Shown in pieces: positions 4,008 through 45,842 of a stretch of 45,842 nucleotides of DNA. The first letter of the stretch is position 1; each line of letters starts with the position of its first letter. The notes under the pieces are model-generated. The model saw nothing but the letters and a program-made list of their open reading frames with translations, made no database searches and had not been told where the DNA came from. The position numbers were made by a program, and so were the translations under genes. The stretch is taken from assembly GCA_035530455.1 (NCBI GenBank), contig DATKUU010000172.1:1-45842 (forward strand), given 5' to 3'. Source of the stretch: Phycisphaerae bacterium (GTDB lineage Bacteria > Planctomycetota > Phycisphaerae > FEN-1346).

Positions 4008-4024
4008 GGGGGCTCGCGGATGAA

Positions 4025-20864: not shown

Positions 20865-20894
20865 GGCGAATCTCTCATCGCACGCAGTAGGATC

Positions 20895-20981
20895 GCTGAA
20901 GGGACGGCCAAGCATGCGCCCGCACCGTCCAAATTTTGGGCCAGCTGCCCCTCCTGTAAATCCCGGCGGCCTTATTCTACA
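20895..20981 (-). repeat. copy B of an 87-nt repeat (TGTAGAAT box plus leader) upstream of the 20046-20864 gene
   Basis: 20895-20981 aligns base-for-base without gaps to 25890-25976, with about a dozen substitutions. Read on the minus strand it starts with TGTAGAAT and ends with ATGCTTGGCCG.CCCTTCAGC. Confidence 0.85.
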
Positions 20982-21353
20982 CGCACCTACAGAACTTGTC
21001 TGCAACGGTCTCTTCGGCCTGACCCTCGATGGCACCTCGCCAGTCAAACGCCCGCGATGAGCTGCCTTGCTGACCGACGAAGGGGAAAGGGTTCAGAACA
21101 GTTCGCCCTGAACCCCGCCGGAGAGATCGGGGTCGGCGACGGACTCCAGGACCGGGAAAGCAGCCCGTAAGGGCCGTCCGAGCAGTCCCGGCGGTCAAAA
21201 GGTTTTCCAGCGCGGTCCCCGGCCGCGAGCGGCCGCAGCGGACGTTGTGTTTACGGAGGCAGCCCCTTGCGGGTGCCTCCCGTGAGCATCAGGAACTTGA
21301 AGCGCAGAGGTTCTGTGCGGATAAGGCCCGCTTGCCAAAGGGCTTGGGACACC

Positions 21354-23278: not shown

Positions 23279-23295
23279 GACAGGAGGACCCAACC

Positions 23296-32000: not shown

Positions 32001-32170
32001 AGCGCCAGGCGAGAGAAGCCCTCGTAGGCATCCTTCCAGTTGCCATCCTTCATCTGCTTGGCGGCCGTCTCGCGGTCGGGCGGCGCGTCCTTGGCGCCGA
32101 ACGCGCTTAAGACCAACAGGGCCGATAGGGTGGAAGCCGCCAAGAGATAGCCCAGCCTTGACCGTATCAT
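26018..32170 (-). CDS. thioester-containing alpha-2-macroglobulin family protein (2050 aa)
   Basis: ATG 32170 gives the signal peptide MIRSRLGYLLAASTLSALLVLSAFGA. A long series of MG-type beta-sandwich regions follows. The thioester motif is EYPYGCTEQTLNRF (CTEQ codons at 27640-27629). The C-terminal part is A2M-receptor-like. Confidence 0.9.
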   Translation of the reverse strand: MIRSRLGYLLAASTLSALLVLSAFGAKDAPPDRETAAKQMKDGNWKDAYEGFSRLALDPADDPMKVGEDLAHALNCLANLGRQNEMDAFREKVIAAHRANWRLLRAAAREYMNVGHEGFIVAGVFERGGHRGGGTYASAYERDRVRALQLMRDAMKAADRDANKAAVGDFYLDLALMLMGQRNYYEAWRLQYLTDLATLPDYEEGYYGGYGGRGPRGAPVDADGNPVFYHIPKSWEAAASDGERWRWALMQAAECGPGKKRSADWHFAIFLWHQFGVQTMAEYRWFFGRAGEADETKKDESGTWALHTLGEDETIARLATGIKRFKLPEEFNYIRILKEINDTLSKQKLAEIFQNRRQYPKAAEYYKSTNMTYQVDQIVGNWGQFESVMTQPAGQGATVEFRFRNGRKVRFTAHEIDVRKLLDDVKAYLKSSPKQLDGKRMQIEDIGQRLLQENQKQYVGREVAAWDLDLEPRPAHFDKRITVATPLQKAGAYWVTAEMDGGNTSHIVLWVADTAIVKKALDKGTYYFVADAATGRPVAKANLEFFGYAQNSVEGPNNRTVRYEILTRDFAEFADADGQLILSAAQHQQDPGYQWLIIATTPEGRLAYLGFTGIWFNDYRDREYNEAKYFLITDRPVYRPKQKVRFKVWANQAQYDREGKSPYAGQKFAVQINNPKGEKVFENAYTADEYGGFNGEFEIPDQATLGVYGVSLPGRAGIGSFRVEEYKKPEFEVKVEAPAEPVALGEKIEARVQAKYYFGAPVTEAKVKYKVLRSEHAATWYPFGLWDWFYEPGYWWFAYDYTWWPGWRDWGCRRPILWWWPRWQREQPEIVAEGEAALDKDGSFKLPIDTAPAKLIHGDQDHRYDITVEVTDASRRTIVGQGRVLVARRPFKVYAWVDRGHYRAGDVVRASFSAQTLDSKPVQGEGTLRLFKVTYGKDAKPVESEVQKWDLATDEEGRAQIQLKASEAGQYRLSYTVTDSKKHAIEGGYVFCIRGEGFDGGQFRFNDIELVTDQREYKPGDKVNLMVNTNRAESTVLLFIRPSNNICLPPKVLRLKGKSVLEAIEVEKKDMPNFFVEALTVSGGKVYSEMREIVVPPESRVLQVDVKPSAEKFKPGEKAKIKVRLTDPTGEPYSGSTVLALYDKSVEYISGGSNVPEIKAFFWKWRRRHQPASETSLTKGGHNVVPPGKRGMGILGVFGYLVPEETGEGQEQAGADWNGARRESGGGGLFAGVPFAAPATTMSMRGARMAEVAGDKATDALGAGVGSGMGGEGPPPPLLEPTVRTKFADTALWVAALQTNEKGEAEVELTMPENLTTWKARVWAMGGGARCGEGTAEVVTAKNLLVRLQAPRFFVQKDEVVLSANVHNYLKMKKNVNVVLEMFGGCLEHVGQDQPVGSYGKIVDIEAGGEARVDWRVKVVQPGEAIVRMKALTDEESDAMEMKFPVYVHGMLKTESFCGVIRPEKTAATIDLRVPAERRPDETRLEIRYSPTLAAAMVDALPYMAEYPYGCTEQTLNRFLPSVITQKALMRMGLDLKDIEKKRTNLNAQEIGDPAERAKQWQRFGRNPVFDEKLLADMVKAGVERLGSMQCSDGGWGWFSGWRERSWPHTTAVVVHGLQVARENDVAIVPGVLERGIAWLKRYQAEEVVKLKNGMKKDPPHSWKDHADNLDAFVYMVLADEKSDDKDMREFLYRDRNDLSVYAKAMFGLALHKLGHQAERDMLIRNVEQYLVQDEENQTAYLKLPEGTWWWCWYGSEIEADATYLKLLVATDPKGEKASRLVKYLLNNRKHATYWNSTRDTALCIEAFADYIKASGEDVSDMTVQILLDGKAVREVKIDKTNLFTFDGTVVLEGKGVTDGKHTLEFRKNGRGPLYFNAYLTNFTLEDPITRAGLEIKVDRKYYRLVPVDKTIKAAGARGQAVDQKVEKFEREPLKDLALLKSGDLVEIELEIESKNDYEYIMFEDMKAAGFEPVDLQSGYGGRGLGAYMELRDERVCFFVRWLARGKHSVSYRMRAEIPGRFSALPTRASAMYAPELRANSDEIKLRIED

Positions 32171-32411
32171 AGTTACCCTTTCTGTGGCAGATTGGATGCC
32201 GCCTATCATAAACCAGAAACTTGTCTGCCCCCAAGTGTTTCCTCGCTGCCTTAGACGTTGTGGAAAGCCGGAAGTTCCGCACGTGCCTCCGAAAACTGTT
32301 ATCGCTGCCCGGACCGCCGGACTTTCAGGTGCGCTCCAGCAGGAGGCTGACGGCATGGACATTTTCCCATCTTGCCGGTTTCCTGGCGGCGTCACCAACC
32401 CACGGCACCAT

Positions 32412-32786
32412 ATGCCCGCCTTCGCGGAAAAGGGGCTTCACATGCTCCATCGCTCTCCCCCGACCTCGACCACCCTCGGCCTTCTCGCCACCGCCCTGGC
32501 CCGCGCGGCTTGTCTGCCCTCTCCTTGCGGGAGCGGGTGGCCGAAGGCCGTGTGAGGGAACCGCAGCACCCTGCGCAGGCAATTCGCCCGGGATCAGAAG
32601 TTCCGCGTCAAGAACGTCGGCGCCGAGCCTGTCTTCTCCGAGTTCCACATCACGAATCCCCAGAGCGGCAAGACCTACCGTGTAGCCATCCGGGGCGGCA
32701 ATCCAGACGGCCGACAGGAGAATCGCCAGGGGAATAAAATGTGCTCGGACTATAACCTTACCTCGACTGGATGGCGCCTTCTTTGA
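32412..32786 (+). pseudogene. possible gene relic with in-frame TGA (product unknown)
   Basis: One plus-strand frame keeps G/C-rich third positions across the whole interval but is broken by TGA at 32553-32555. The distal part (GNRSTLRRQFARDQKFRVKNVGAEPVFSEFHITNPQSGKTYRVAIRGGNPDG...) has no start codon of its own until ATG 32751-32753, 11 codons before the stop. Confidence 0.3.
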
Positions 32787-32796
32787 TGGTCCTGCT

Positions 32797-35700
32797 TTAC
32801 GGTTGGTTTGACTGGTTCGGTGGGGGCTTCTCTGTCGCTGTGTCACCCGCAGACACGGTCACCCCGAACTTGGCCATTGCCTCTGCGCCCTGCGGGCCAT
32901 GGAGGAATCGAAGGAAGTCGTTGAGTACCACATACGTGCCTCTGCCGGGCGGGGCTACGATCAAGATTTCTTGCGGTGCCGAATCGGGCGCATCACGGAA
33001 CAGTCCGAGCCTGTGTACCGGCAAGTCGCCGTCGTAGAGATCTTTGAATTTCAGAAGCTCTTTGGTTGCCACGTCGCCGCTATAAAGTTCCTTGATGGCC
33101 GGGAGTTCATCGGCCGGCAAGGGGCCGACGGCCACGAGGATGTATCCTGATTGGAGCGCGTGATGCACGGAAGAGAACGTGTTAAACCCGCGCGACACGT
33201 GTGGATGCAGTTGGGTGTATTCATACGATGTGCGGGAAATGGCATCGTAAACCTTCTTCGGGACATTCGCCGTCATAAACCCCAGGCTTTCCGTGCACGG
33301 CTGTTCGTCCAGTTCCGGGTTGTAACCTGCCCAGGGCAGATCGCCGATGCCGCGCTCCCCGCGCAGCCATTGGGCGAAACTGTTGCGTTTCGTATCGACG
33401 CGGAAAAGTTGCCCGACCGCACTTTGGAAATACAAGCCCATGAACATAAGTTGCCACTGGGGATGGTTCGGATCGGGCCAGCGCTCCTGAAGCCGGCGGA
33501 GCCGCCCCAGAAACGCCGCCTTGTCGCTCCGCAATTCGTCAACCATCAGGCGTACGAACTCACTGTGCAAGACCTTGTCGGGATGATCGTCGTACCGCCG
33601 CGACCAGTCCTGCACGAGAGGTTCGACCACGGCCGGGTCCGGCCGGCCGTAACGATAACGCAGGTACTGGCGAAGGATGTGCAAGTGGTTGAAGAAGTTA
33701 TAGTAGGCGTAGTCGCGGTGCTCCTTGCCGTTCAGGGTGAACCGCTCGTGATACGCGTGAAGCGCCCCCAGGAGGCGCTGGTAGTAGAGGGTGTCCACGG
33801 CGCTCTCGCCCGCGCGCTTGGACCGTCCGCGTTCTCCCACTATTTGCTGGAGCGCGATGCGGTACGGCGTCAGGACCTCGATGTATCGGTTCGAGCGCTG
33901 GAACATATTGAGGTACCGCTCGGCGGCCCGCAGGAAGGCCGGCAGGTCGTCCATGGCCTGGCACGCATCATTGTAGTTGATGCGGTAGGCCATGGCGGCC
34001 CCGTAGGCGGCGTCCTCCCAGGTCGGATCGAGTTGGGCGGCGCGTTCCAGGTGGCGGATCCGCTCCTGGCTGAGGCGATGCCTTTGCCACTGATCCTCCG
34101 GCGGGCGCTGGAACCCGGAGTGCTGGTAGATGCCGAGGGCCATTAGCTCGCGCGACTTCCGGAGGTACTCCTGTTCCCATCGCTGGTCGAGTAGTTCGAT
34201 CTGCCGGCCGAGGGCCTCGGCCTTGTCGAACTCGATACGGTACTGCTCGGCCGCCCACTCATCCGGCCACTCGGGACCGGCGCTCGGCGGAAGAGGTTCC
34301 TCGGCGGCCGCGCGCAACCCGGTCCGCGCCCAGGCCAGCGCCTGGCTTGCCAGTTTATCGTCGGTCGGGCCCGTCACCAGGGCCGTCGCCATTTCGCGCC
34401 CGTCGCAGGTCCGGCAGAGATGGAGCGAGAGTCGTTGCGGCGAAACGAGTCGGCCTTCCAGGACGTAATCCGCCGCCGGAGTGAACCGCGCGGCGCCTGT
34501 CCGCGAGAGTCCCATCAGGCGAAGCAGGACTTCGATCCGCGCATCCTCCGCCGGCTCGTACGTGGCCAGGAAGAAGCCGCGGTCGTCCGCCAGCCCTCCC
34601 TCCAGCCGGTGCCGCACCCTCTGGGCCCGCTCCAGGTCCGACTCGCCCGGATAGATTCCGCGCACCGTCACGACCAGCCGCGTTCGGGCCTCGTGCAGCC
34701 GGCCCAGGACCGTCGGCCACCACGCGGCCACGCGGTCCCGAAGCGTCGGCTCGAACTCCGTCGGCCGGACCGGGTCCGCCGGCAGCGCCAGCCGGCCCAG
34801 CAAGGTGCCCGTCGCTGCGTGCACGGCCTGGACCTCCAGGTAGTCGCGGTGCCCGATCGTGACCCGCGCGGGGCGGACGAGCACCTCCGCGGTCAGGATC
34901 GCTCCGACCGGTTCCCGAGGCGCTTCGCCGAGCAGGAGCGTCACGTGCTCGTCCAGGACCCGGACCAGTTCCGCCCGATCTACGAGCGTGACGCGGCGGC
35001 TTGCCTCGATGCCGGCCAGGATCTCGCGCTCCCACGCGTCGAGAAACGCGTCCCCCCCGAGCGGGCGGAAACCCGTCAGGTCAAGCGTGGGCAGGAGCGC
35101 CACCACGGCCGTCAGGTTGTCAGGCGGAAGGGGCGCACCCGGCGCGGGCGAGACGACCTCCTCGGCCGGCGCATCGTCCTTGGCCGCAATGTGTCCACAC
35201 CAGTAAAATACCTTCAAATGGTACCGCCCGCCCACGAGCAGGCGGTCTCGAACGAACTGCGCGAAGGCCCGCGCTGTCGCCGAAGCGCCGGGCCGCACCC
35301 CCAGCCAGATCCGGTCGTTGAACGGGTTCCGCCGTTCCTCGCCCTGCGACGACCGGACGGTGAGGATGCGCAGCCCGGAGTCCAGCACGTCCACCGGACG
35401 TTCCGGAAACAGGAACCCGATGGCTTCCGGGTCGGACGCCACCGCCGTCATCGCGCCCCACGAGTCATTGAAACCGTCCATCTTGGGAGGACGAGTGCGC
35501 CGCCCGGCGGCGTCCAAAAGTTCCTTCAGCGGCACATAGAGGTTGAAACTTTGCCCGCCGCGCACCAGGTGGAGAGGCCGGTCCGGACCGCCCAGCGCCT
35601 TCCAGGAGGTGATCTCCCCCGCAACGACGGCGGCCAGCGTGTCGGTGTCAATCTCGTGGAGCGGGGAGTCCGGATGGACCACCACACAGCCGCGCCACCC

Positions 35701-36186
35701 CGCGATGGCACGTCCCAGAAACACCTGCTCGTAGCCGCGCGACCGCAAGCCGTCGATCGCCTCGGCGTCAACTCCGAACAGGCACACGACGTCCGCCCGG
35801 TCGTTCTCCCCCCAGGCGTTGAGGAACTCTATTCCGTCCAAGCCGAGAGCTTCGGGCATCACCTCGAAGGCCTCGCCCAGGGTTCCCAGGAACTCGGTCG
35901 CCGGAGGGGTGCAGGCGACGCGAACCCGGGGCCCTTCGTCCTCAGCAGCGGCGAGTGGTTCCGCCCTGGCTTGGGAGGGGACGGAGGTCGAATCCTCGGC
36001 GAAGGCCCGGGCGCCCCCGAGGACCAACCAGAGGCCCGGCAGGATCGAAGCCAACGCCATCAACAACCAGCCAATCCGGCGACGTTGCACGCGCCACATG
36101 CTAGGATTCATCCCGCGGCTCAGCGACCGTTCAGACGACTCCGAAGCCCAAACATCGCCCTGACCCCCTATCGCCGGACCGGCCAT
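32797..36186 (-). CDS. exported 1129-aa protein: PstS-like periplasmic-binding domain, two CsgG/LpoB-like modules and a large helical C-terminal region
   Basis: ATG 36186 lies 6 nt after AAGGAG, which sits in the end of the upstream gene (stop TAA 36192-36190). TM/signal segment IGWLLMALASILPGLWLVLGGARAFA. PBP_like_2-type motif IAGWRGCVVVHPDSPLHEIDTDTLAAVVAGEITSWKALGGPDRPLHLV. Module example: VVALLPTLDLTG...ILAGIEASRRVTLVDRAELVRVLDEHVTLL. Confidence 0.8.
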   Translation of the reverse strand: MAGPAIGGQGDVWASESSERSLSRGMNPSMWRVQRRRIGWLLMALASILPGLWLVLGGARAFAEDSTSVPSQARAEPLAAAEDEGPRVRVACTPPATEFLGTLGEAFEVMPEALGLDGIEFLNAWGENDRADVVCLFGVDAEAIDGLRSRGYEQVFLGRAIAGWRGCVVVHPDSPLHEIDTDTLAAVVAGEITSWKALGGPDRPLHLVRGGQSFNLYVPLKELLDAAGRRTRPPKMDGFNDSWGAMTAVASDPEAIGFLFPERPVDVLDSGLRILTVRSSQGEERRNPFNDRIWLGVRPGASATARAFAQFVRDRLLVGGRYHLKVFYWCGHIAAKDDAPAEEVVSPAPGAPLPPDNLTAVVALLPTLDLTGFRPLGGDAFLDAWEREILAGIEASRRVTLVDRAELVRVLDEHVTLLLGEAPREPVGAILTAEVLVRPARVTIGHRDYLEVQAVHAATGTLLGRLALPADPVRPTEFEPTLRDRVAAWWPTVLGRLHEARTRLVVTVRGIYPGESDLERAQRVRHRLEGGLADDRGFFLATYEPAEDARIEVLLRLMGLSRTGAARFTPAADYVLEGRLVSPQRLSLHLCRTCDGREMATALVTGPTDDKLASQALAWARTGLRAAAEEPLPPSAGPEWPDEWAAEQYRIEFDKAEALGRQIELLDQRWEQEYLRKSRELMALGIYQHSGFQRPPEDQWQRHRLSQERIRHLERAAQLDPTWEDAAYGAAMAYRINYNDACQAMDDLPAFLRAAERYLNMFQRSNRYIEVLTPYRIALQQIVGERGRSKRAGESAVDTLYYQRLLGALHAYHERFTLNGKEHRDYAYYNFFNHLHILRQYLRYRYGRPDPAVVEPLVQDWSRRYDDHPDKVLHSEFVRLMVDELRSDKAAFLGRLRRLQERWPDPNHPQWQLMFMGLYFQSAVGQLFRVDTKRNSFAQWLRGERGIGDLPWAGYNPELDEQPCTESLGFMTANVPKKVYDAISRTSYEYTQLHPHVSRGFNTFSSVHHALQSGYILVAVGPLPADELPAIKELYSGDVATKELLKFKDLYDGDLPVHRLGLFRDAPDSAPQEILIVAPPGRGTYVVLNDFLRFLHGPQGAEAMAKFGVTVSAGDTATEKPPPNQSNQP

Positions 36187-36189
36187 TGG

Positions 36190-39100
36190 TTACTCCTTGT
36201 CGTCGTCGGCCTGGGAGCGGAGGGCTTCTTCAGATTTCGCACGCTGACCGGCTTTTTGCATCCGCTCTATCTCTGCAAGCATTTCCTTCACCTTGTCCGG
36301 GGCGATGCCGGCGCCGAGCGCCTCCAGGAGGTGTTTCCTCGCCCGGTCAAAACCCTGATCGAAAAGGGCTTGCGACGCGCGGCCCAGGGGCGTGTCGGGG
36401 CAATGCACTCGGACCGGCTGGTCCCCCGCGGGTGCGGGTTGGTCGAGGACCCACGTCGTCTTGGGAATGCGGCCGAACTCCTTCCCGGTCACGTACAGAA
36501 AATCACCGAAGGGCTGGGCGTGAAGGAAAGGAGCCGTCGTTCGGACCGGGGCCGAGAAAGCCCCCTTCTTCACATCAAAGGCTGTGATGAACGTGGCTGC
36601 ATCCTCGGCCTGGCTGAGATAATAGTCGATGTACCCGACGGGGCTCTGGTCGCGGCGGGGGTAACTCACATCGCGTTTGCTGACGATCCATACCAGATCG
36701 GGATTCCGGTCATCGGCGATGACTTCCTTGACGATACACGGCGGCAGGGGGCAGTTGCCCTCGACCCACGTCACCAGGCTTTTCCAGTAGCAGAAGCCCG
36801 CCGGGTACCACAGCCGCTGCGGCTTGCCGTCGCTAGCGATGAGGACAAGGCCCCGTTCCGTCGCCACATAGAGGCCCTCCGGCCGCGCCAGCAGGCGGCG
36901 CCGGCCGACACGGCCGGCGTTGTAGTGGCGCGAGGGGGGCCGGAAAAATTCCGGCACGGGATACAGACGCCGCAAGTCATCTTCTGTCACCATACGCTGG
37001 GGCTTCTTGCCGGCCGGATCGAGGATCGTCAACTCCGTCGGCTCGTAACGCAGGAAGCACAGGTCCCCCGCGACCATCGCCAGCCCTTCGGTCCATCGGG
37101 GCACTTTGTCCTTATGGAGGAAGACCTTGCCGGCCGTATAGCGGCTGAGGAACCCGTCGCCGGTCACCCAGACGTCGGGGCCGTCGGCGGCCAGGCCCCA
37201 GACCCAGTCCGAGCCCAGGCCTTCTTTCATGCCCAGGAACTGCCAGGAGTCGGCCTCGACGTCGTAGATGGCCACGCCTTGCTGATAGGAGAGGGCGAAG
37301 AACACCTCCTTGCCCACCTGGGCGGCGTCAATGATGAAGTGGGCGACGTCCTGCATTCTCTCGGGCAGCGCGATGGGCCGCCACCGACCCTGAGCCGGCA
37401 AGAGAGCAAGCGTGAGGTTCTTGTCGGCCGTGATCCCTTGCATCCAGAGGCCCGCGGCCGTTCGGCGCACCACGAAACTGTAGAGAAGGTCGCCCGGCGC
37501 CCCTTCGACCGGCTGGGGCGTGATAACGGGGCACTCGAGACGCCCGAGTAGAAACCGGTCGGCGCCCCCGAGATAGTATCCCCAGACGTCCTCGCCGCCG
37601 GCGTCCGGATCCTCAAAGGCCTGGCCGTAGAGTTCGGCGATCTTCGGCCCGCCCTTCCAGCGGCGCTCCTGCCATTCGATGCGGGCGATGACCCGGTCGC
37701 GCTGCTCAGGGTCCAGTCGCTCGGCCGCCTGGCGCCACCAGCCTCCCCGGTTCGCGGCGGTGATGGAGTTGAACTCGTATTCACCCGGCGCCTGGGTCAC
37801 GAACGCGTCGTAAAGGTACGGGGCCGCTTCGTCGAGGTTCCCCAGTTGGGCGTATGCGGCAGCCACTTTGTAAGGGAAGAGCGAGAGGTACTTTTTCTCG
37901 GTGTACAGTCCATCCATCCACTTCAGGAAGGCGAGCCGCCCGGCCGGATGCGCATCCCACCAGTCTGAGAAACGGTATTTCGGCCAACAGATTTCCGGCG
38001 GGTTGACCGGGTCCAGGCTGTGGCGCCATCGGACGCAGTCCGTCATGAGTGCGCGGTGCTCCTCCCACGGCTCTTGTTGAAACTTCGCCGCCAAGTGAAT
38101 CATGGCGTAGCGGTAGGCCCATTTGCCCTTCTCGGGGGCGATGTCCGGGAACCTCAGGTAGGTCTTCAGGACGTCAACGACCTGCCTGGAGGCCTGGGGC
38201 GTCCATGGAAATCCCGCCGGATCGCCACGGATGAGGGCGTCCAAGGAGATGCCGAGGCAGTAGTACGCCTCCTTGGCCGAGGGGTCCAGGTAGATGATGC
38301 GTCGGGCGGTTTCGACCTGCCGCCGATGGTCTTCCAATGATGCGATAAACGCGAGCGGCTTGAGGTCGGCCATGAGGCGCGCCGCTTCGATCTTCTGCTC
38401 GGCGAGCATCCAGTCCTGGCCCGGCCCCTTTGCGCCGCTCGAAGGAATAATTCGCTCCAGTTCCGGCAAGAGGTCCTTCATGCCGGCAAGCGTAAACGGG
38501 ATGACGCGGTCGGCCGCCGCACCGCCCTTCGGAGCGACGGTCAGGCGGAGTCGGATGGGCGTGCGTTCGAAGGGCGTGTCGCCGGAGGGCGTCTCGGTGA
38601 GCGTGGCGGCGACCACCAGGTCGGCGGCCTCGGCCAGGACGGCGGCGTCGGGCCGCACCAGGCCGGAGACGCCCAGCGCCGTCTCGCCGGCCAGGACGCC
38701 TGCATAGCGGCGCCGCAGGACGCGGTAGCCCTTGGCCTCGAGCATGTCCTCCAGGATGCCGCGCAGCGAGTCCTCCAGGAATTCCAGCCGCCGGGACTCG
38801 CTCTTGTTGGTCACCGAGAGGACTGTTGCAGAGGGCCGGTCCCTGGACTGTTCGGCCTCGTGGATGCAGGCCTTCAGGCCGGCCACGATCTCCGGAACCC
38901 ATGCCGGGGCCGCGGCGTCGTCCTGGGGCAGGCCCAGGGCGACCGCTTTTTCGTACAGCACATTCCCGCTGCCGACCTCGATGCACAGCAGGCCGAGCGT
39001 CGGGCGAGGTCCGCCGGTCTGAGGCACGGCATAGACCAGATAACTCGCGCCGAGCATGCGTCCTGTCTGCACGGGCGCCCGGACCGCGCCGGAAAGCGAC

Positions 39101-39330
39101 AACGCGTGCTCGCGGAGGACCTTCGAAATGTGATCGCGGTCGAGGACCCGGAACTCGGCGTCGGCCTCGAGCGCCGTGGCCAGACGAGCGCGGATGGCCT
39201 CCGCCTCGGCCCCTGCGGGCTCGATGAGGATCGCCAGCGTCACGGCCGGGCGAGACGGCGTTTCCTCGGCTGCGGCCCCCGTCGCGGCCAGGACGAGAAT
39301 CGCCAGCCAAACACCGCCGCGTCGGACCAT
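36190..39330 (-). CDS. exported 1046-aa protein: two CsgG/LpoB-like modules, a helical region and a beta-propeller-like region
   Basis: ATG 39330 lies 5 nt after GAGGAG. Signal MVRRGGVWLAILVLAATGAAAEE. Module 1: VTLAILIEP...LEADAEFRVLDRDHISKVLREHALSLSG...GRMLGASYLVY. Module 2: TVLSVTNKSES...LEAKGYRVLRRR. Propeller-like repeats: GLWMQGITADKNLTL, GVAIYDVEADSWQF, DVWVTGDGFLSRY, GLYVATERGLVLIASDG. Confidence 0.8.
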   Translation of the reverse strand: MVRRGGVWLAILVLAATGAAAEETPSRPAVTLAILIEPAGAEAEAIRARLATALEADAEFRVLDRDHISKVLREHALSLSGAVRAPVQTGRMLGASYLVYAVPQTGGPRPTLGLLCIEVGSGNVLYEKAVALGLPQDDAAAPAWVPEIVAGLKACIHEAEQSRDRPSATVLSVTNKSESRRLEFLEDSLRGILEDMLEAKGYRVLRRRYAGVLAGETALGVSGLVRPDAAVLAEAADLVVAATLTETPSGDTPFERTPIRLRLTVAPKGGAAADRVIPFTLAGMKDLLPELERIIPSSGAKGPGQDWMLAEQKIEAARLMADLKPLAFIASLEDHRRQVETARRIIYLDPSAKEAYYCLGISLDALIRGDPAGFPWTPQASRQVVDVLKTYLRFPDIAPEKGKWAYRYAMIHLAAKFQQEPWEEHRALMTDCVRWRHSLDPVNPPEICWPKYRFSDWWDAHPAGRLAFLKWMDGLYTEKKYLSLFPYKVAAAYAQLGNLDEAAPYLYDAFVTQAPGEYEFNSITAANRGGWWRQAAERLDPEQRDRVIARIEWQERRWKGGPKIAELYGQAFEDPDAGGEDVWGYYLGGADRFLLGRLECPVITPQPVEGAPGDLLYSFVVRRTAAGLWMQGITADKNLTLALLPAQGRWRPIALPERMQDVAHFIIDAAQVGKEVFFALSYQQGVAIYDVEADSWQFLGMKEGLGSDWVWGLAADGPDVWVTGDGFLSRYTAGKVFLHKDKVPRWTEGLAMVAGDLCFLRYEPTELTILDPAGKKPQRMVTEDDLRRLYPVPEFFRPPSRHYNAGRVGRRRLLARPEGLYVATERGLVLIASDGKPQRLWYPAGFCYWKSLVTWVEGNCPLPPCIVKEVIADDRNPDLVWIVSKRDVSYPRRDQSPVGYIDYYLSQAEDAATFITAFDVKKGAFSAPVRTTAPFLHAQPFGDFLYVTGKEFGRIPKTTWVLDQPAPAGDQPVRVHCPDTPLGRASQALFDQGFDRARKHLLEALGAGIAPDKVKEMLAEIERMQKAGQRAKSEEALRSQADDDKE

Positions 39331-39383
39331 GACTTCTCCTCGATCGGATGGCGCCTCGTTAACGCCCGCGACCTGCGGCCGGC

Positions 39384-42300
39384 TCAGTCCGGTTTGCTGA
39401 ACAGCGGGTTGCCTCGGATTTCGTCGCCGCGGCCTTCTTTTTCCAGGTACCAGCGGAGGATGCCCGCGGCTTCGTCGTGGACATACCTGCCAAGGTACTT
39501 TAGGTAGGGTTTCTCTCGCCAGTTCTCCTGGAGTTCGGGTATCTCTCCGTGTACGTACGCCCAGGCCGCTTTCTCGAACGCCTCCTTCTGGTTGGTGTAG
39601 TACAGCGCCCGCAGGTACGCCTTCACACGTGGAGGCGCCACATGATAGAGAGTGACGTTGCGCAGGGGGCTTTCTTTCCAGAGGCGCGGCACGAGTTCGG
39701 CCAGTTCCTTCCATTGGCCTGCTTGCTGCATATAGTAAAGCATGGTGCATTCCGCACTGGGCCGGTCCAATTTGCCGGGGTCTTCGGTGAAGGGCATGAA
39801 CACTGCGGCGGCTTCGTCGTAGGCGCCGAGTTCGCCCAAGGCAGTGCTCAGACGAATCGCTTTTTCAGGCGAGCCCTGCGCAGTCGCTTCAACGGCCGCT
39901 TGCTTATAAGCATCCAGGACACGGCGCCGCAGGTCGGGATTGGCGCGGGCATCGGCAAACCTCATCAGATACGCAGCCTGTTGAAGGGGCGGCTGCTGGT
40001 CAAGCCAAGCCTCCAGGCGCCGCCGGACCTCCTCGCGGATCTCCTCGGAACTGCGAAACGCGTCGGGCCGGCGCACGAGACCCCGCAGCGTTTCCATCGG
40101 CACAAGGACCACCGTGTCCTGGTTGCTTACGAACAGCGTGTCCGTCGTGCGGGCGAGGCTGTGGCCCGAGGGGGCCACCTTCAGCGGCCCGAGGAATGAA
40201 TCCCCGTCCCGGGTGGCGCTCAGGCACCCGCTCGCGTCCAGCACCCACAACGCATCGCCGTCGCTGAACACGTCGGTAGGATAGCCCTGGAGGGGGGCCA
40301 TCCGCATCGTCCGGCAAATCTTCGGGTTCCAGAGCCATTCATGCCTATCCGGTGTGTACACGGAAAGGTTCGCCGGCGGGAAATAAAGAGGCGAATAATC
40401 CCCCGTCGCCTCGTCGAGCAAGTACAACGGGTCCTGGGAGTCCCAGTACCGCTCGTGGAAGAGCACGAGCCGTTCGGTTGCCGCCACAAGCGAGGGCTGG
40501 AAAGAATAGGCGCCGATGACCCGGTCCTCTTCCCACTGGCCGGAGGCCGGGTCGAACCGGCTCAGGCGATCGGGGCGGTTCCCGTCGCCCGTGCACTCCG
40601 GGTGGAAGACGCGCCACGGTTCCGCGTCGCGCGGAAGGAGGCGGCGGACATAGCCGCACGACTTCGGCGCCATCCAGACCGTCCACTGGTTCCGGCCTTC
40701 CGTCAGCCGCGCGATGTAGCCCGCCTTCTCCCCTCCGCCGGCGGCATACAACGCGCCGTCGCGCACGACCAGGGAATAGACCGACCCGTCCGGAAAACCG
40801 TCGGTTACCTTCGTCGTTTTCCCCGTCGCGGGATCAACGGCGTACAGGCCGTGCTGTTCGGCCCCGACGTACACGCGCCCGCCGAACGACGCGATCGGCG
40901 GCCGCATGACGTAACTTATATAGATCGTGCCGGGCGGGTAGAGCGGAGGAATCCCGTCGAGGGCGATCGGCTCCGAGTCACCGATCCGCCACAGGAAGTA
41001 CTCCTGACCGTTTCGCAGGACTGCCCACGGCGTCCCCCCTTCAGCCGAGACGGACATAGCACGGCCCTTGGGTACGCGATGGCTGACGAGGCCCTCCAGG
41101 GGCCTGGCATCCACGAGGACGGTCGAACCCCAGGGCGGCAGGACAAGTTGACTTTCGATCCCTTGGGAGGTCTCTTTTTCCTGCGCCGCTTTCCGCGCCG
41201 CCCCTTCGATGATGGGGCGCCACCGGTCGCACTGTTCCGACGCTTTCAGGACGTCGACGCGTTTGTTCAGGTGCAGGTCCCCCACATCATAGCCGGGGTA
41301 CATTTCCTGCATGAACTCCGCCGCCTTCAAGGCCCATTCGAACTGTCCGTAATCAATGGCCATCCAAACCAGACAACTGAACGGGGACCAGCCGCACAGT
41401 TGTGCGTCCGGCATTGCCGCCACGCACAGGTCGAATGCCTTGTCGGGCCGACCCGCCATCACCAACACGCGGACAGCCGGCTTGATGTCACCCGAGCGGG
41501 CGTCGCCGATTCGGTTACGCCCCTGAATGAGGCTGTCAGCCAAGCGTATGGCCAGCGCGGCCGCTCGCTGAAAATCGTCCTTGTTGATCTTTTCGAGGTC
41601 GGAGAAGCCATGAGTGAGGAACACCAGTTCGCGCCCGACCGCTTCCGGCCAGAGCGGGTGCTCAGGGAAGGCCTCGATGAATTGCCGGCGAATCACGACA
41701 GCCGGGTCGTCCGGCTCGCGCCAGACTAGACCCTTGGTCGGCACCCGCTTATGTATCCAACTGCGCATCACCTTGCAGGTCACCTCGTAGGGCTCGGGGG
41801 AATCGGGAATGAGGATGGCGGCCTTGAGGACCAGGGCGCTCGCCACCTCGGAGTTAGCCTGCAGCAACTCGTACGTGGCCGTCATTTGCTTCGCCAGCAC
41901 GAGGTATTTCTGGGCCTCCCAGTACCGCCGCGCCCGATCGTCCGTCTCGACGGCCGGCGGGGCGGGCGTGCCGGTCAGCGCGGCTATGGCCTCCGCGAGG
42001 CGCTGGACGGCCTCGGTCTCCATCGCCGCCGCCCCGGCCAAAATGCCGGCGACGCGGATTTCCTTCTCCTCCCCGCCGCGCGAGACCTTCAGTTCCAGCG
42101 CGAGTTGCGACTGGTCCACCGCCTTGCCGCTCGGAAACGTCTGCGTCAGGTTTCCGTGGACGGCGATTGCGCCGGCGACGGGGGCGAATGTGCGCTCCGG
42201 GTCCACCAGGCCCGCCGCCGCCAGCGACGCCTCGACCAGGACGAACTCCCCGAGCTCGCGGTGCAGAATGCGCACGTTAGGCATCGCCGCCAGCCGTTCG

Positions 42301-42986
42301 GCCAGGCGGGTGCGAAGCCCCTCGGCCAGCCCGCCCTCCCCGGGAAACGGACTCTCGTGCTCGATCGGCAGCAGGGCGACGTCCACGGCCTCCGGCCGGC
42401 GCACCAGGTGCTCCGGCAGCGCCCGGACGAAGCGTCGCACGGCCTGCCGCACGTCCGCCTCGTCGGAGACCGTGGCGGAGTGCGACAGCGGCACGTTCCC
42501 GGTCGCGGTCTCCACGGCGTCGAGCGTCAGGCGAACGCCGTCGGCCTGGGGCGCGAGGCGCGAGGCGATCAGGATTTCGGCCCCGACGATCCGGCCGGCC
42601 TGAAGGTCCTTGCGGCCGAGGTGGCTGAGGACGATCTCGTCCAAAATCCGCCCGAGCTGCGTCCGGTCAACGATCTCGGCGTTGGGGAGCGAAGCGGTCT
42701 CGGCGTCCAGGGTCTGTTCGACCGCGCCGCGAAGGTTCTCATCGGCGCCGGGCAGACGGACTGTCACCGGCAGCAACCCGATGGACCACGCGCGGTCGGC
42801 CCCGGGTTCGGTGCCGGCCGGGGTTGCTGCCCGCACCGGCGGCACCGCCAGAGCGCCTGCGGCCACGGCGCAGACCAGACGTTCCGGCGCGGCCTCCTGT
42901 GCCGGCGCCGCCTCGGCCCGGGCCGCCAACAGCACCAGCGCTGCGCCAACCCACCAGGCCGGATGCTCTGGCCCGCGACGTATCAC
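39384..42986 (-). CDS. exported 1200-aa protein: two CsgG/LpoB-like modules, a helical region and a beta-propeller-like region
   Basis: GTG 42986 overlaps the upstream stop (GTGA, 42986-42983). Signal VIRRGPEHPAWWVGAALVLLAARAEA. Module 1: WSIGLLPVTV...LPNAEIVDRTQLGRILDEIVLSHLG...GRIVGAEILIASRL. Module 2: VDVALLPIEHES...MPNVRILHRELGEFVLVEASL. Propeller-like repeats: HGLYAVDPATGKTTKV, SVYSLVVRDGALYAAGG, DALWVLDASGCL, DTLFVSNQDTVVLV. Confidence 0.8.
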   Translation of the reverse strand: MIRRGPEHPAWWVGAALVLLAARAEAAPAQEAAPERLVCAVAAGALAVPPVRAATPAGTEPGADRAWSIGLLPVTVRLPGADENLRGAVEQTLDAETASLPNAEIVDRTQLGRILDEIVLSHLGRKDLQAGRIVGAEILIASRLAPQADGVRLTLDAVETATGNVPLSHSATVSDEADVRQAVRRFVRALPEHLVRRPEAVDVALLPIEHESPFPGEGGLAEGLRTRLAERLAAMPNVRILHRELGEFVLVEASLAAAGLVDPERTFAPVAGAIAVHGNLTQTFPSGKAVDQSQLALELKVSRGGEEKEIRVAGILAGAAAMETEAVQRLAEAIAALTGTPAPPAVETDDRARRYWEAQKYLVLAKQMTATYELLQANSEVASALVLKAAILIPDSPEPYEVTCKVMRSWIHKRVPTKGLVWREPDDPAVVIRRQFIEAFPEHPLWPEAVGRELVFLTHGFSDLEKINKDDFQRAAALAIRLADSLIQGRNRIGDARSGDIKPAVRVLVMAGRPDKAFDLCVAAMPDAQLCGWSPFSCLVWMAIDYGQFEWALKAAEFMQEMYPGYDVGDLHLNKRVDVLKASEQCDRWRPIIEGAARKAAQEKETSQGIESQLVLPPWGSTVLVDARPLEGLVSHRVPKGRAMSVSAEGGTPWAVLRNGQEYFLWRIGDSEPIALDGIPPLYPPGTIYISYVMRPPIASFGGRVYVGAEQHGLYAVDPATGKTTKVTDGFPDGSVYSLVVRDGALYAAGGGEKAGYIARLTEGRNQWTVWMAPKSCGYVRRLLPRDAEPWRVFHPECTGDGNRPDRLSRFDPASGQWEEDRVIGAYSFQPSLVAATERLVLFHERYWDSQDPLYLLDEATGDYSPLYFPPANLSVYTPDRHEWLWNPKICRTMRMAPLQGYPTDVFSDGDALWVLDASGCLSATRDGDSFLGPLKVAPSGHSLARTTDTLFVSNQDTVVLVPMETLRGLVRRPDAFRSSEEIREEVRRRLEAWLDQQPPLQQAAYLMRFADARANPDLRRRVLDAYKQAAVEATAQGSPEKAIRLSTALGELGAYDEAAAVFMPFTEDPGKLDRPSAECTMLYYMQQAGQWKELAELVPRLWKESPLRNVTLYHVAPPRVKAYLRALYYTNQKEAFEKAAWAYVHGEIPELQENWREKPYLKYLGRYVHDEAAGILRWYLEKEGRGDEIRGNPLFSKPD

Positions 42987-44047
42987 TTCTGCCCCCCCTG
43001 GCCGGCGGCAAACCGGGTGATGACGGCGTCGCAGGCCTGGACGCCGGCGTCTTCGAGGGCCGCCTTGGCGGCCAGGGCTTCCACCAGGTCCACGCGTGCG
43101 GCCACGCCCTTGTCGCTGATTGTGACGGTTCTGCCTGGGACGGCGATCAGGCGCAGTTCCACGCGGGCGCGGCAGGAGATCAGGCCCTCCATCGCGGCCG
43201 CATAGGCGCTGGTGCCTTCGCCCTCCAGCAGGAGGTCCACCTTTTGCTCGCCGTAGCGGCCGGTCTCCAGCAGCGCCTGCTTCCAACCGTCCACCGGGTC
43301 CTTGGGCACGATCACCTCGATCCCCAGCGCCTTGAGGCGGTTGGCGACGGCCATCTGGGCGGCGGGGTCGGCCAGCGGACGGTTCACGTGCGTTTCCGTC
43401 ACGTCCACGAGAATCACCTTGCCGATCAGTGCCTTGGCGGCCTCGCGGACCTTGGCCAGGGCGGCATCGTCCTCCGCTTCCAGGGGCTTCTGAAGTTCAC
43501 GGACCTGGGGCGTCAGAGAGTCCTTGAGCCGCTCCACCAGCGCCTCCAGGCCTTTCTCGGCGACGGCCTTGGCCGAGACGGTCGTCTGGACGGTCGTGGC
43601 CACGTCGACGATCTTGAGCACCAGGTAGTTGGTCTGCCCGATGCGGCTGGCCCGGCCGACGATGACGTAGTTGGCCGACAGGAACTTGCCGAGTTGCGCG
43701 GCGGAGGCGTTGTCCACCAGGCCCGCGAGCACCATCTTGTGCTCGTCGGCGATCTTCTTGATCTGGTCGCGATTGACGATCGTCACGTTGGGCATTTCCG
43801 CCAGCATCGTGTTGACCTGGTCGGTCAGAGCGGCCGGCTCCAGGTCCACGCCCTTGAGCACGTCGAAGTCGAATACGGCCACTCGGATGGCTCGCAGGTC
43901 TGCTTTGTCGGCTGCCTCGGTCGTGCTTTTGGCCGACGGGGCGGCAGCAGGCGTATCCTTTTCCTGCGCCCGTGCCTGGGCCACTCCCAACAGCAGGGCT
44001 GCGATGGCGATGCATGCGACACAAACGGAACGCCTGTAGGTAATCAT
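42983..44047 (-). CDS. exported 354-aa protein made of CsgG/LpoB-like alpha/beta modules
   Basis: ATG 44047 overlaps the upstream stop (ATGA, 44047-44044). Signal MITYRRSVCVACIAIAALLLGVAQARA. IRVAVFDFDVLKGVDLEPAALTDQVNTMLAEMPNVTIVNRDQIKKIADEHKMVLAGLVDNASAAQLGKFLSANYVIVGRASRIG..YLVLKIVDVATT matches the N-terminal domain pattern of CsgG/HfaB/LpoB-type proteins. The second half is similar but weaker. Confidence 0.85.
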   Translation of the reverse strand: MITYRRSVCVACIAIAALLLGVAQARAQEKDTPAAAPSAKSTTEAADKADLRAIRVAVFDFDVLKGVDLEPAALTDQVNTMLAEMPNVTIVNRDQIKKIADEHKMVLAGLVDNASAAQLGKFLSANYVIVGRASRIGQTNYLVLKIVDVATTVQTTVSAKAVAEKGLEALVERLKDSLTPQVRELQKPLEAEDDAALAKVREAAKALIGKVILVDVTETHVNRPLADPAAQMAVANRLKALGIEVIVPKDPVDGWKQALLETGRYGEQKVDLLLEGEGTSAYAAAMEGLISCRARVELRLIAVPGRTVTISDKGVAARVDLVEALAAKAALEDAGVQACDAVITRFAAGQGGQK

Positions 44048-45447
44048 TTTCTCTCCTCCTCTTGGTCCGGGGGCGCCAGAGGCACCCCGAGTTCAGTCAG
44101 TGCCAACATCAGTCGTATTTGACTCTCCTTTGAAGGCGGAAGGCCATCGTCCGGCAACCATTGGACGCCGGCGGCGCCGATTTGTTTCTTCGCGCGGTCG
44201 AGTTTCAGCCATTCCCACTCGTCCAGCATCGGGTCATCGCCCAGGATCACCAGACTGTCGGCATCCGCGCCGATTCGCCTCTCCAGGGCCTTCAACTCTT
44301 CGCGAAGTCCTTCAGGCAGGCGATCGGTTCCGCGGACATCCAACACATACGCCGCCCACGGCAAGTCCTTGAAGGCGACGAGCGTCGAAGCGGCTGCCGC
44401 GAGCACCGGCCGATCCTTGCGGTCTATTCTGTCCCGCTTCGGGTGGACGAAGTTCAGGCTGCGCCATGCGACATTCGAAAGAGACGCTTCGGCCGCTGCG
44501 ACCAGCGTTGCCCGCAGCAGTTCGTCGGCCTCCTCCCTCCGGCCGAGTTGCTCCGCCCAGGGCAGGTAACTCAAGACCACGGGACGCATCGCCGCCGGGG
44601 GGCTGCCGGCCACGGCAACCGCCTCCACCAGCGGCAGGCTGTCCCTGTCGGCGATCCATGCCCATCGGTTGGCTATCATGCCGCAGGGCTGCCGACGCGA
44701 GCGGAACTCCAGCGCGCCGGCCCACGTTTGCTTGCCGGTGATTGCCAGCAAATCTCTTCGCATCTGCCCCCCTCCGACAGCCACGGGGCTAGCGGAATCG
44801 CCGCCCCCCTTACTGAACCACTCGGTAAAGAAATCGAGGAAGAGAATGTTGACGGCTTTCTCGTTCGCGAGTTTCACCACGTGAACCGGATCTCTTCTGC
44901 CGGTTGCGTTTGGGCTGAGGATCAAGAGCGTCTTAGTGTCCTCGCCAACCTGGCCGAGTTCGGCGGTCGGCAACCCCGCCGGCGTGATGGTCTTCAACGG
45001 GAGTCCTGTGGCCGTCGCCCACTGGTCGAACCAGGAGGGCACCCCGCAGGAGTAGAGAACGATCTTTTCGTCCCACGCCACGTCCTGGTCGGGGTAGGCG
45101 ACGAGTTCGCCCACGATGTGCCTGCTGTTTTGCTCGATGATCGAGAAAACGGTCGGCACGCGCACCTTCGGCACGGCCATGTCGGCCGAGGCGGAGGCCG
45201 AGGAGACCGCGACAGGAGCGGGCTTCGACCACGTTCGGCCGAAGGCGCTCAGGACAACGTTCAACTTCGCCAGCCCCGGATGCGGCCAGCCGAAAGGATG
45301 CAGCCAGACGCGCATCTCCTGTCCGCCCCGTGCGAACGTCACCGGCGGCGGAGGCGGCTTGACTTCCATATCCACGGCCTGGGCGCGAGCGACCGTGAAC
45401 GGCATCGCAACCATCACCGCCAGCAACATGGAACCCAGTGGCCGCAT
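44044..45447 (-). CDS. exported hypothetical protein (467 aa)
   Basis: ATG 45447 lies 8 nt after AGGAG. Signal MRPLGSMLLAVMVAMPFTVARAQA. High GC3. No family recognised. Confidence 0.75.
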   Translation of the reverse strand: MRPLGSMLLAVMVAMPFTVARAQAVDMEVKPPPPPVTFARGGQEMRVWLHPFGWPHPGLAKLNVVLSAFGRTWSKPAPVAVSSASASADMAVPKVRVPTVFSIIEQNSRHIVGELVAYPDQDVAWDEKIVLYSCGVPSWFDQWATATGLPLKTITPAGLPTAELGQVGEDTKTLLILSPNATGRRDPVHVVKLANEKAVNILFLDFFTEWFSKGGGDSASPVAVGGGQMRRDLLAITGKQTWAGALEFRSRRQPCGMIANRWAWIADRDSLPLVEAVAVAGSPPAAMRPVVLSYLPWAEQLGRREEADELLRATLVAAAEASLSNVAWRSLNFVHPKRDRIDRKDRPVLAAAASTLVAFKDLPWAAYVLDVRGTDRLPEGLREELKALERRIGADADSLVILGDDPMLDEWEWLKLDRAKKQIGAAGVQWLPDDGLPPSKESQIRLMLALTELGVPLAPPDQEEERK

Positions 45448-45458
45448 CAGTTCCGCTC

Positions 45459-45842
45459 CTACCGCATCGGCCAGGCGGACGCCTCGACGTTCAGCACCTT
45501 CTCGCCCAAGGCCAGTTGGCCCAGCGAGGTCTCGGCCAGGCCGATGCGGCGCCGGCCCGCGAGGCTGGCGACGGTCGGCTGCCGCCCGTCCCCATCGACG
45601 GCAATGGCGTACTGCATCTCCACCTTGCCGTTGACGGTGCGCGGCGCGAGGTACACCCGCAGGCCCGCTCGGCCGGGCGATTCGGCGGGCAGTTCGATGA
45701 CGGCCGACCGGTCCTCCCGACAGACGATCACAAGCGTCCGCGCGGCTTGCCCTGAGCCTGTCGAACGGGCTGCGTCGGGGCCGGCGGGCCCCAACTTCAA
45801 CAGCACGGCGATGGGTGTTTGGCCGGCCTCCGTCCCCCCGGC
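45459..45842 (-). CDS. 3' part of a hypothetical protein gene; first visible gene of the operon, 5' end outside the window
   Basis: The frame stays open from the right window edge to TAG at 45461-45459, 11 nt before the next start. Translation: ...LVIVCREDRSAVIELPAESPGRAGLRVYLAPRTVNGKVEMQYAIAVDGDGRQP.... No family recognised. Confidence 0.6.
   Translation of the reverse strand, partial: AGGTEAGQTPIAVLLKLGPAGPDAARSTGSGQAARTLVIVCREDRSAVIELPAESPGRAGLRVYLAPRTVNGKVEMQYAIAVDGDGRQPTVASLAGRRRIGLAETSLGQLALGEKVLNVEASAWPMR

Follow-up and report, generated by a model that had tools for sequence, protein, structure and literature searches.

What system is encoded by the six closely packed genes at the right-hand end of contig DATKUU010000172.1, a 45,842-nucleotide (nt) stretch of a Phycisphaerae genome (assembly GCA_035530455.1) analysed here in full and referred to as the window? 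A preliminary description, made from the letters of this DNA, had proposed a tightly packed, translationally coupled operon of exported proteins built from repeated CsgG/LpoB-like modules, and had left the system unnamed. The six open reading frames (ORFs) lie on the minus strand at 32797-45842, the rightmost one being cut by the window edge, and we find that they belong to an extracytoplasmic function (ECF) sigma/anti-sigma operon of the RpoE/RseA type, with a conserved putative promoter, a four-gene core, and variable giant exported proteins. Listed by position, with lengths in amino acids (aa), the genes are as follows.

32797-36186, minus strand: g1, 1129 aa, exported; PstS-like binding domain, two tandem modules and a helical C-terminal half.
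36190-39330, minus strand: g2, 1046 aa, exported; two tandem modules, a TPR-like region, a Reg_prop-like beta-propeller and a helical C-terminus.
39384-42986, minus strand: g3, 1200 aa, exported; two tandem modules, a helical region, a beta-propeller and a helical C-terminus.
42983-44047, minus strand: g4, 354 aa, exported core protein with two LpoB/LptE/CsgG-N-type alpha/beta domains.
44044-45447, minus strand: g5, 467 aa, exported core protein with a novel fold.
45459-45842, minus strand: g6, the C-terminal 127 aa (periplasmic part) of a putative 284-aa anti-sigma factor, truncated at the edge.

The five junctions between these genes, read directly from the sequence, are an 11-nt gap (g6/g5), an ATGA overlap with GAGGAGGAG in front (g5/g4), a GTGA overlap (g4/g3), a 53-nt gap containing GAGGAG (g3/g2), and a 3-nt gap for which an AAGGAG is located within g2 (g2/g1), exactly as had been reported. 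No terminator-like sites were found at any junction from g6 to g1, their count across the region being below the shuffle expectation. A sigma-70 promoter scan likewise gave nothing beyond shuffle expectation, and an Rfam scan of the whole window returned no family. Signal peptides, judged together with signal peptidase I-type sites by a heuristic, were seen in all five complete products, each with a positive N-region, a hydrophobic core (11-aa hydropathy 2.2-3.1), and small-x-small cleavage sites, in line with the signal-peptide-like starts noted previously. The window proteins carry signal peptidase I-type sites by this heuristic, and a lipobox-like motif, sought by regular expression, was rare in their families (4 of 45 g4, 2 of 60 g5, and 1 of 13 g2 family members), which argues against lipoprotein status. 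The view of g6 to g1 as a tightly packed and probably co-transcribed operon of exported proteins is thus supported.

The identity of the operon became apparent beyond the window edge. Protein g4 is encoded on 14 public contigs, one of which (L001) matches the window at 99.4% identity along 12.9 kb and reaches 8.2 kb beyond its right edge. There, g6 is complete at 284 aa, with a start that overlaps the stop of the preceding gene, which encodes a 173-aa ECF sigma factor recognized by Pfam (Sigma70_r2, 59 bits; Sigma70_r4_2, 42.7 bits), whose closest relative in the PDB is E. coli sigma-E (E = 2e-19), followed by the sigma-H factor 6in7 and SigW. The putative anti-sigma factor has one transmembrane segment (aa 80-103) and a periplasmic C-terminal domain of ~180 aa. 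Its family shares an N-terminal LSQLxDGEL motif, which reads LSQLADGEL in the L001 protein, and is weakly matched by hidden Markov models (HMMs) for RseA_N (3 of 13 members, best E = 0.004) and zf-HC2 (2 of 13). A 1015-aa protein with the same module pair lies 22 nt before the sigma gene, so that the order in this lineage is putative promoter, 1015-aa module protein, putative promoter, ECF sigma, anti-sigma (g6), g5, g4, g3, g2, and g1. Since L001 continues past the edge with the sigma and 1015-aa genes, the window holds the distal part of the sigma operon, and the earlier statement that no regulator was recognised in the visible genes has to be revised: g6 is probably the periplasmic end of an anti-sigma factor, and the ECF sigma factor is encoded just outside. 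Leaving aside the sigma factor and the cytoplasmic N-terminal part of the anti-sigma factor, every product is exported and lacks a conserved lipobox, and scans with Pfam and NCBIfam recognized no enzyme domains among the operon products. On L001, a 240-aa gene without Pfam match and of low complexity was called at 3295-4017, in the interval that separates a divergent TPR gene from the 1015-aa gene, with the first ECF promoter motif at 4037, 20 nt past its stop; we regard this call as probably spurious and the ~960-nt stretch as a probable regulatory region.

To what extent is this arrangement conserved? Around 40 loci were collected, 35 from a g4-family seed and 22 from an anti-sigma seed, 4 of the latter being new, and in every locus the six-frame ORFs were scanned with the window proteins and a module HMM. 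The hosts are all metagenome-assembled genomes (MAGs) of Planctomycetota (Thermoguttaceae, Planctomycetaceae, and Phycisphaerae), with the exception of one bin labelled Deltaproteobacteria. The order sigma, anti-sigma, g5, g4 is kept in almost every g4-seeded locus with enough flank and in all 4 of the new anti-sigma-seeded loci. The exceptions are four loci in which the ORF scan left one core gene undetected (L015, L019, L020, and L038) and two (L039 and L040) in which sigma, anti-sigma, and g5 lie on the opposite strand, divergent from g4 and its downstream giant gene. In almost every locus, between one and five module proteins of 700-1650 aa are encoded alongside, and neither their number nor their order or type is constant: g2-type proteins are found again in L009 and L016, g1-type proteins in L009 and L012, and the 1015-aa type in L014, L016, L019, L024, L027, L043, and L045. 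The conserved unit is therefore sigma, anti-sigma, g5, and g4, and the giant paralogs are not part of it; of the gene-order conservation on which the preliminary description had made its proposal depend, the part concerning the core stood and that concerning the giant genes did not.

Two of these loci deserve separate mention. The Deltaproteobacteria-labelled bin (L034; JBLMWR010000437.1) has the full order of anti-sigma, g5, g4, and module protein, and its label probably reflects mistaken binning or labelling and not transfer. On the 493-kb contig of L008 (region 18949-21065), a second sigma-like gene (weak Sigma70_r2) lies 8 kb downstream of the core and is followed by a gene for a 1520-aa Ser/Thr kinase that also matches Poly_export.

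To find a shared promoter element, we enumerated bipartite words over the 290 nt that precede sigma in each of 27 loci, and GAAAC...CGTC(TAA) was found in 16 of the 27, compared to at most 5 in shuffles. In its strict form, GAAA[CT]-N15-17-CGTCTAA, the motif has 28 matches in 1.18 Mb, against 0.1 expected. Of the 27 loci with a sigma gene, 23 carry it 25-94 nt ahead of the sigma start (on L001, within the 3' end of the 1015-aa gene), and the other 5 matches are just upstream of a giant module gene preceding sigma (L001, L009, L016, L027, and L028). No strict motif was found upstream of sigma in the two divergent loci, L039 and L040, or within the window. An AAC/CGT character is typical of ECF promoters, and we infer that GAAAC-N15-17-CGTCTAA is a putative autoregulatory ECF promoter: its occurrence before both sigma and the upstream giant genes supports autoregulation and puts the upstream giants in the regulon, and g5 to g1, before which no exact motif is found, are probably read from the sigma promoter. 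A copy with one mismatch, GAAACAAATCGGCGCCGCCGGCGTCCAA, lies inside g5 (44161-44188, minus strand) and ends 114 nt upstream of the g4 start. Present in 1 of 34 loci, the window lineage alone, it was rejected as a conserved internal promoter, and it could be either a chance occurrence or a lineage-specific internal promoter.

These data leave next to no credence for the notion that packing and repeats reflect long chance ORFs among unrelated neighbours. The GC content of the window, ~66%, and its many long overlapping ORFs on both strands do invite such a suspicion; however, every ORF has homologs of conserved length and order elsewhere, the same genes were called by independent gene callers on near-identical metagenome contigs, g4 and g5 yield confident AlphaFold 2 (AF2) folds, and the promoter motif is conserved ahead of the operon. 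The conservation data refute this explanation.

What, then, are the proteins that the operon exports? The module that had been noticed in four of them spans ~110 aa and occurs in eight copies, seven of them identified by sequence and one by predicted topology, as follows.

43493-43900, minus strand: g4 domain 1 (aa 50-185), the canonical module; supported by Pfam, HMM, AF2, and Foldseek.
42995-43435, minus strand: g4 domain 2 (aa 205-351); predicted topology as in domain 1.
42462-42797, minus strand: g3 module 1 (aa 64-175); HMM seed, BLASTP to g2 with E = 2e-9.
41952-42404, minus strand: g3 module 2 (~aa 195-345); HMM match at aa 200-265 with E = 1.2e-6, aligns with g2 module 2.
38932-39264, minus strand: g2 module 1 (aa 23-133); Pfam CsgG 20.1 bits, hhalign against g4 domain 1 with a probability of 97% and E = 1e-10.
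38416-38853, minus strand: g2 module 2 (aa 160-305); hhalign against g2 module 1 with a probability of 90%, E = 1.7e-6, over 107 columns.
34777-35112, minus strand: g1 module 1 (aa 359-470); HMM seed, BLASTP to g4 with E = 2.5e-4 and to g2 with E = 1e-7.
34267-34674, minus strand: g1 module 2 (~aa 505-640); suggested by the 288-aa alignment of g1 375-652 with g2 38-315.

The HMM matches to the first modules (g4 50-164, g3 64-175, g2 23-133, and g1 359-470; E = 1e-40 to 1e-47) are circular, since the same four segments seeded the HMM. Independent backing comes from Pfam and from pairwise BLASTP (E = 1e-4 to 7e-10), including alignments of g2 13-283 with g3 51-318 (E = 7e-10), g2 38-315 with g1 375-652 (E = 1e-7), and g4 70-163 with g2 42-131 (E = 2e-4). 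The mutual BLASTP alignment of g1, g2, and g3 extends over ~270 aa and covers both modules. When taken in isolation, the second modules and g4 domain 2 had no relevant Pfam match, and profile-profile or transitive alignment is what points to the second modules of g1 to g3. Against Pfam CsgG (PF03783), g4 scored 27.3 bits (gathering score 20.8), g2 20.1, and g3 10.2, with no match for g1, and 8 of 13 g2 orthologs matched this family. The match covers positions 39-97 of the 210 in the profile, its C-terminal 110 positions being unmatched. Against Pfam LpoB (PF13036), g4 scored 21.8 bits, just under the cutoff of 22.3, and against TIGR02722 22.6 relative to a cutoff of 110.55. The (D/N)R...E and G..hGA motifs are seen in the module alignment. 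The module is CsgG/LpoB-like, and with it the earlier account of the module holds in its family, its sequence pattern, and its number of about eight copies.

The same module occurs beyond this operon. Distant relatives of g2 carry up to five tandem CsgG/LpoB/FlgO-type Pfam stretches (P0283 and P0315), and modules elsewhere are fused to FGE-sulfatase, VWA, or ankyrin repeats (among the distant g2 matches P0283, P0315, P0304, P0300, P0317, and P0332). The repeated-module architecture is more widespread than, and not unique to, the g1-g6 operon.

The core protein g4 consists of this module type throughout. Its AF2 model, built from 45 sequences (predicted local distance difference test, pLDDT, 79), has two consecutive domains, each with the order beta-alpha-beta-alpha-beta-beta-beta-alpha. 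The best Foldseek match of domain 1 is the C-terminal domain of LpoB (4q6l/4q6z; template modelling (TM) score, normalized by target, 0.67-0.70; root-mean-square deviation 2.5-2.8 A; 111-113 columns), with further matches of g4 to CsgG, LptE, PelC, GNA1162, and DUF330. Domain 2 holds most of the invariant residues (E218, H220, D227, E275-A281, and S291-L298). Sequence similarity between domains 2 and 1 was not detectable, and they are linked by the order of DSSP elements in the AF2 model. Among 311 g4 homologs, the best 120 are at 60-95% identity; most homologs have a precomputed PF13036 (LpoB) match on record, and a 95%-identical relative is labelled "CsgG/HfaB family protein" at NCBI. Compared to L007, g4 is 57% identical, sigma 50%, g5 44%, and anti-sigma 43%; no other protein of the system is as well conserved as g4.

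The second exported core protein, g5, is different in kind. Its AF2 model (pLDDT 88, predicted TM score 0.87) comprises an Ig-like beta-sandwich (aa 36-118) and, C-terminal to it, two alpha/beta domains. Foldseek against the PDB gave no convincing full-length match (best TM score 0.23), and the matches obtained, to GMP synthase (TM score 0.23) and to Ig-like domains, were at domain level or superposed poorly. PDB profile searches with the g4 and g5 families returned zero matches at E<=10, and Pfam found nothing consistent across 60 g5 family members. The 116 clusters of g5 homologs are unnamed or "hypothetical", and those with an organism label are from Planctomycetota. Invariant residues are mostly Trp (many), Arg, and Asp, with no invariant Cys or His, so that g5 appears to be a binding protein rather than an enzyme, and an amidotransferase reading was rejected because no Cys or His is invariant. 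The protein encoded in the window (467 aa) differs at its N-terminus from the recorded 473-aa form. Judging from the model, g5 is a confidently predicted fold that is unrelated to the module proteins and has no solved relative. The cluster is thus not made only of paralogous scaffold-like proteins, as had been thought: g5 has an unrelated novel fold, and neither g5 nor g6 contains the module.

A few homologs of these core proteins have an extra N-terminal Secretin_N domain (PF03958) after the signal peptide, namely the g4 homologs P0015, P0041, and P0019 and the g5 homolog P0195; P0019 and P0195 may share one contig, the longest contig recorded for each being 44,919 bp. In these homologs the domain could serve to build rings or to make contact with the anti-sigma factor.

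The preliminary description had considered that CsgG-type modules might stack as rings, and we weighed an envelope-spanning device for secretion, anchoring, or polymer export, similar to CsgG, PelC, and HfaB. CsgG and PelC, which form rings, do share this fold, the strong conservation of g4 would be compatible with an oligomer, and Secretin_N is a ring-building motif; yet the latter is limited to a small subset of g4 and g5 homologs, and the same fold is monomeric in LpoB and LptE. The proteins have no lipobox, no outer-membrane beta-barrel or transmembrane hairpin was seen in them, and the matched CsgG positions leave out the channel-forming part. The operon has no gene for a substrate, polymerase, glycosyltransferase, porin, or ATPase, and csgE, csgF, csgA, csgB, hfa, or pel genes were found neither among the operon products by Pfam and NCBIfam nor in the gene tables of related loci. 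The analogy to a CsgG ring is not supported by this comparison, and we consider such a device very unlikely.

The giant proteins add further domains to the module pair, the matched parts of which are as follows.

40680-40898, minus strand: g3 beta-propeller blades (aa 697-769); PDB propeller 8prj with E = 3e-6, Kelch, and a weak Pfam PQQ_2 match.
37075-37320, minus strand: g2 Reg_prop-like propeller (aa 671-752); ortholog profile against the PDB.
35344-35709, minus strand: g1 PstS/PBP_like_2-like segment (aa 160-281); Pfam 26.1 bits, PDB 4n13 with E = 7e-6.

Among PDB entries, the profile of the g2 orthologs picks out the propellers that form the periplasmic sensor domains of Bacteroides hybrid two-component systems (4a2l, E = 2e-6; 3v9f, 5e-6; 3ott, 3e-4) as well as a TPR protein, and g2 orthologs match TPR families in Pfam. 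In g1, PBP_like_2 scored 26.1 bits against a cutoff of 27 and TIGR02136 22.6 against 206.6, and the region of the PstS motif, inspected by eye, reads R-G-G-Q-S-F-N instead of the usual SGT. As far as can be judged from sequence, g1 thus has neither the full-length match nor the Ser/Thr-Gly-Thr expected of a PstS-type phosphate-binding protein. The guesses of Reg_prop, TPR, and PBP_like_2 domains made at the outset were borne out by Pfam, the g2 orthologs, and the PDB profile matches. All three giants appear to be rare: g2 has 98 matches among 1.84 billion cluster representatives, roughly a dozen of them full-length, the g1 family comprises 4 clusters in a word-filtered search of 5.8 billion sequences, and the C-terminal part of g3 has no relative in the 37 other loci examined.

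How might these parts work together? We favour, with a probability of roughly 0.5, a reading by analogy in which g5 and g4 would be RseB-like partners of the anti-sigma factor, and the giants exchangeable ligand-binding adaptors, in an autoregulated envelope-signalling operon. The sigma factor would drive its own operon from the GAAAC-N15-17-CGTCTAA promoter, with the downstream genes g5 to g1 read from the same promoter. In the periplasm, g5 and g4 would act on the C-terminal domain of the anti-sigma factor and so couple an envelope signal to sigma release. The giant proteins would serve as exchangeable periplasmic receptors or adaptors feeding this hub of g4, g5, and anti-sigma factor, each joining a tandem LpoB-like pair and TPR-like helices to a domain of ligand-binding type (a Reg_prop-type propeller in g2, a propeller in g3, and a PstS-like domain in g1). 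Giant genes located before sigma would be targets of the sigma factor, and downstream giants would probably be read from the sigma promoter. There is precedent for such a double role, FecA being both sensor and target in FecIR signalling, and in known proteins the LpoB/LptE fold docks on envelope machines or binds lipopolysaccharide. The conservation of g4 above that of sigma, anti-sigma, and g5 in the comparison with L007 fits the role of a hub, and the rarity and fast divergence of the giants fit that of variable inputs.

Several points weigh against this reading. The RseB-like role is deduced by analogy from gene position and compartment, and neither g5 nor g4 resembles RseB; the anti-sigma assignment draws on weak HMM matches; and the matches to sensor-type domains are short (~60-120 aa) with E-values of 1e-5 to 1e-6, the SGT of the g1 candidate domain reading SFN. 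In addition, promoter evidence cannot separate sensors from effectors, because a member of the regulon may be pure output, and all loci come from MAGs, with no experimental organism at hand.

Such a pure output is the substance of a rival account, which we regard as somewhat unlikely. Here, the sigma pair would sense envelope stress alone, and g5, g4, and the giants would be its regulon, acting as non-enzymatic periplasmic scaffolds or chaperone-like adaptors in outer-membrane or peptidoglycan biogenesis. Single polypeptides would then combine the folds of LpoB/LptE (alpha/beta), BamD (TPR), and BamB (beta-propeller), which are separate lipoproteins in Proteobacteria. In favour of this account are the ECF promoter directly upstream of giant module genes in an operon without other cargo, the matches of g4 to LpoB, LptE, and PelC, the weak PQQ_2/BamB match of g3, the TPR matches of g2 orthologs, and a sigma factor closest to sigma-E, whose regulon is dominated by Bam, Lpt, and chaperone genes. 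Biogenesis factors, however, are expected to be conserved and single-copy, whereas the giants vary between close relatives and are very rare. Moreover, the system is absent from most of the Planctomycetota genomes sampled, ~40 species having been recovered with a stringent pattern search, and the propeller of g2 is closer to sensor-type Reg_prop than to BamB.

The signalling reading, if extended, would amount to a new input architecture for ECF sigma factors: a soluble hub of g4 and g5 on the anti-sigma factor would receive interchangeable giants that dock through their tandem LpoB-like pairs, so that one sigma factor could integrate several envelope or nutrient signals. We see this extension as doubtful, and the hub-and-receptor complex might be oligomeric or ring-shaped.

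A gene for a giant bacterial alpha-2-macroglobulin (26018-32398, minus strand; ORF of 2126 aa; Pfam MG2, MG3, A2M_BRD, A2M, TED, and bMG10) lies on the same strand 400-620 nt downstream of g1, with its likely start near 32170 at the signal peptide MIRSRLGYLL. It was rejected as a member of the system, the neighbour being different in L009, the sole other locus with a gene table past the module genes. GC is 0.61 at 32001-34000, compared to 0.65-0.70 around it; this segment takes in the 3' portion of g1 together with the spacer that separates g1 from the alpha-2-macroglobulin gene. Window positions 1-26000 look like ordinary chromosome, with several long ORFs without Pfam match, no tRNA genes, and the following genes annotated by Pfam.

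4025-5326, minus strand: chorismate synthase.
6314-8029, plus strand: GH10-like protein.
20046-21047, minus strand: DUF6933 protein.
23077-25842, plus strand: HEAT-repeat protein.

What would such an operon mean? Literature on ECF sigma factors, CsgG, LpoB, and Planctomycetes yielded no description of it, a search of incomplete coverage that is not proof of novelty, and the system is real and apparently undescribed. It is not a categorical novelty, since ECF operons of unknown function are common and tandem CsgG/LpoB modules occur in other proteins. Planctomycetota carry very many ECF sigma factors, and to our knowledge signals or partners are known for almost none of them. This operon is a defined, conserved, and testable unit, with a predicted promoter, a four-gene core that includes two uncharacterised periplasmic proteins, and variable giants. 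If the hub-and-receptor model is true, it would represent a new route for signals into an anti-sigma factor; if the giants are instead output, it would be a pointer to envelope biogenesis in Planctomycetota without the accessory lipoproteins of Proteobacteria. The data further show that the LpoB/LptE/CsgG-N domain is not confined to lipoproteins and that large periplasmic proteins, within this operon and beyond, use it repeatedly as a building block.

Among known systems, the individual proteins have several counterparts. LpoB, the activator of PBP1b, is the best structural match of g4 domain 1, with Pfam near threshold, and differs in its lipobox and long disordered linker, both absent here, and in TIGR02722, for which g4 remains far below the cutoff (22.6 vs 110.6); moreover, the domains here occur as tandem pairs and within 1000-aa proteins. 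With CsgG, HfaB, and PelC, the g4 module shares an alpha/beta periplasmic domain and the (D/N)R...E and G..GA signature, whereas g4 lacks the channel-forming hairpins of CsgG and is modelled as two compact alpha/beta domains. Other tandem CsgG/LpoB/FlgO proteins are alike in their repeated modules and differ in the domains added to them. The sensors of Bacteroides hybrid two-component systems (4a2l, 3v9f, and 3ott) resemble g2 in their propeller blades, matched by the ortholog profile over ~80 residues alone, and differ in that g2 has no kinase, receiver, or DNA-binding domain and would be free-standing in the periplasm.

At the level of the operon, FecI-FecR-FecA and related cell-surface signalling systems similarly combine an ECF sigma factor, a membrane anti-sigma factor, and envelope proteins with binding domains under the promoter of the sigma factor. 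They differ from the system described here, which has no TonB-dependent receptor and no FecR domain, whose putative receptors would be soluble periplasmic proteins, and in which Secretin_N rather than STN is found, in few homologs. The rpoE-rseA-rseB-rseC operon of E. coli and the algU-mucA-mucB-mucC-mucD operon of Pseudomonas differ as well: g5 and g4 are unrelated to RseB and MucB in sequence and fold, 3 or 4 giant multidomain proteins are added, the promoter consensus is GAAAC-N15-17-CGTCTAA, no gene for a DegS- or MucD-type protease is present in the operon, and the present system is known from sequence alone. What they have in common with it is a sigma-E-like ECF sigma factor, a single-pass anti-sigma factor (here a putative one, with a weakly RseA_N-like N-terminus), whose gene here overlaps that of the sigma factor, an AAC/CGT-type promoter before sigma, and genes for periplasmic proteins next in line, with g5 and g4 placed where RseB and RseC (or MucB) sit.

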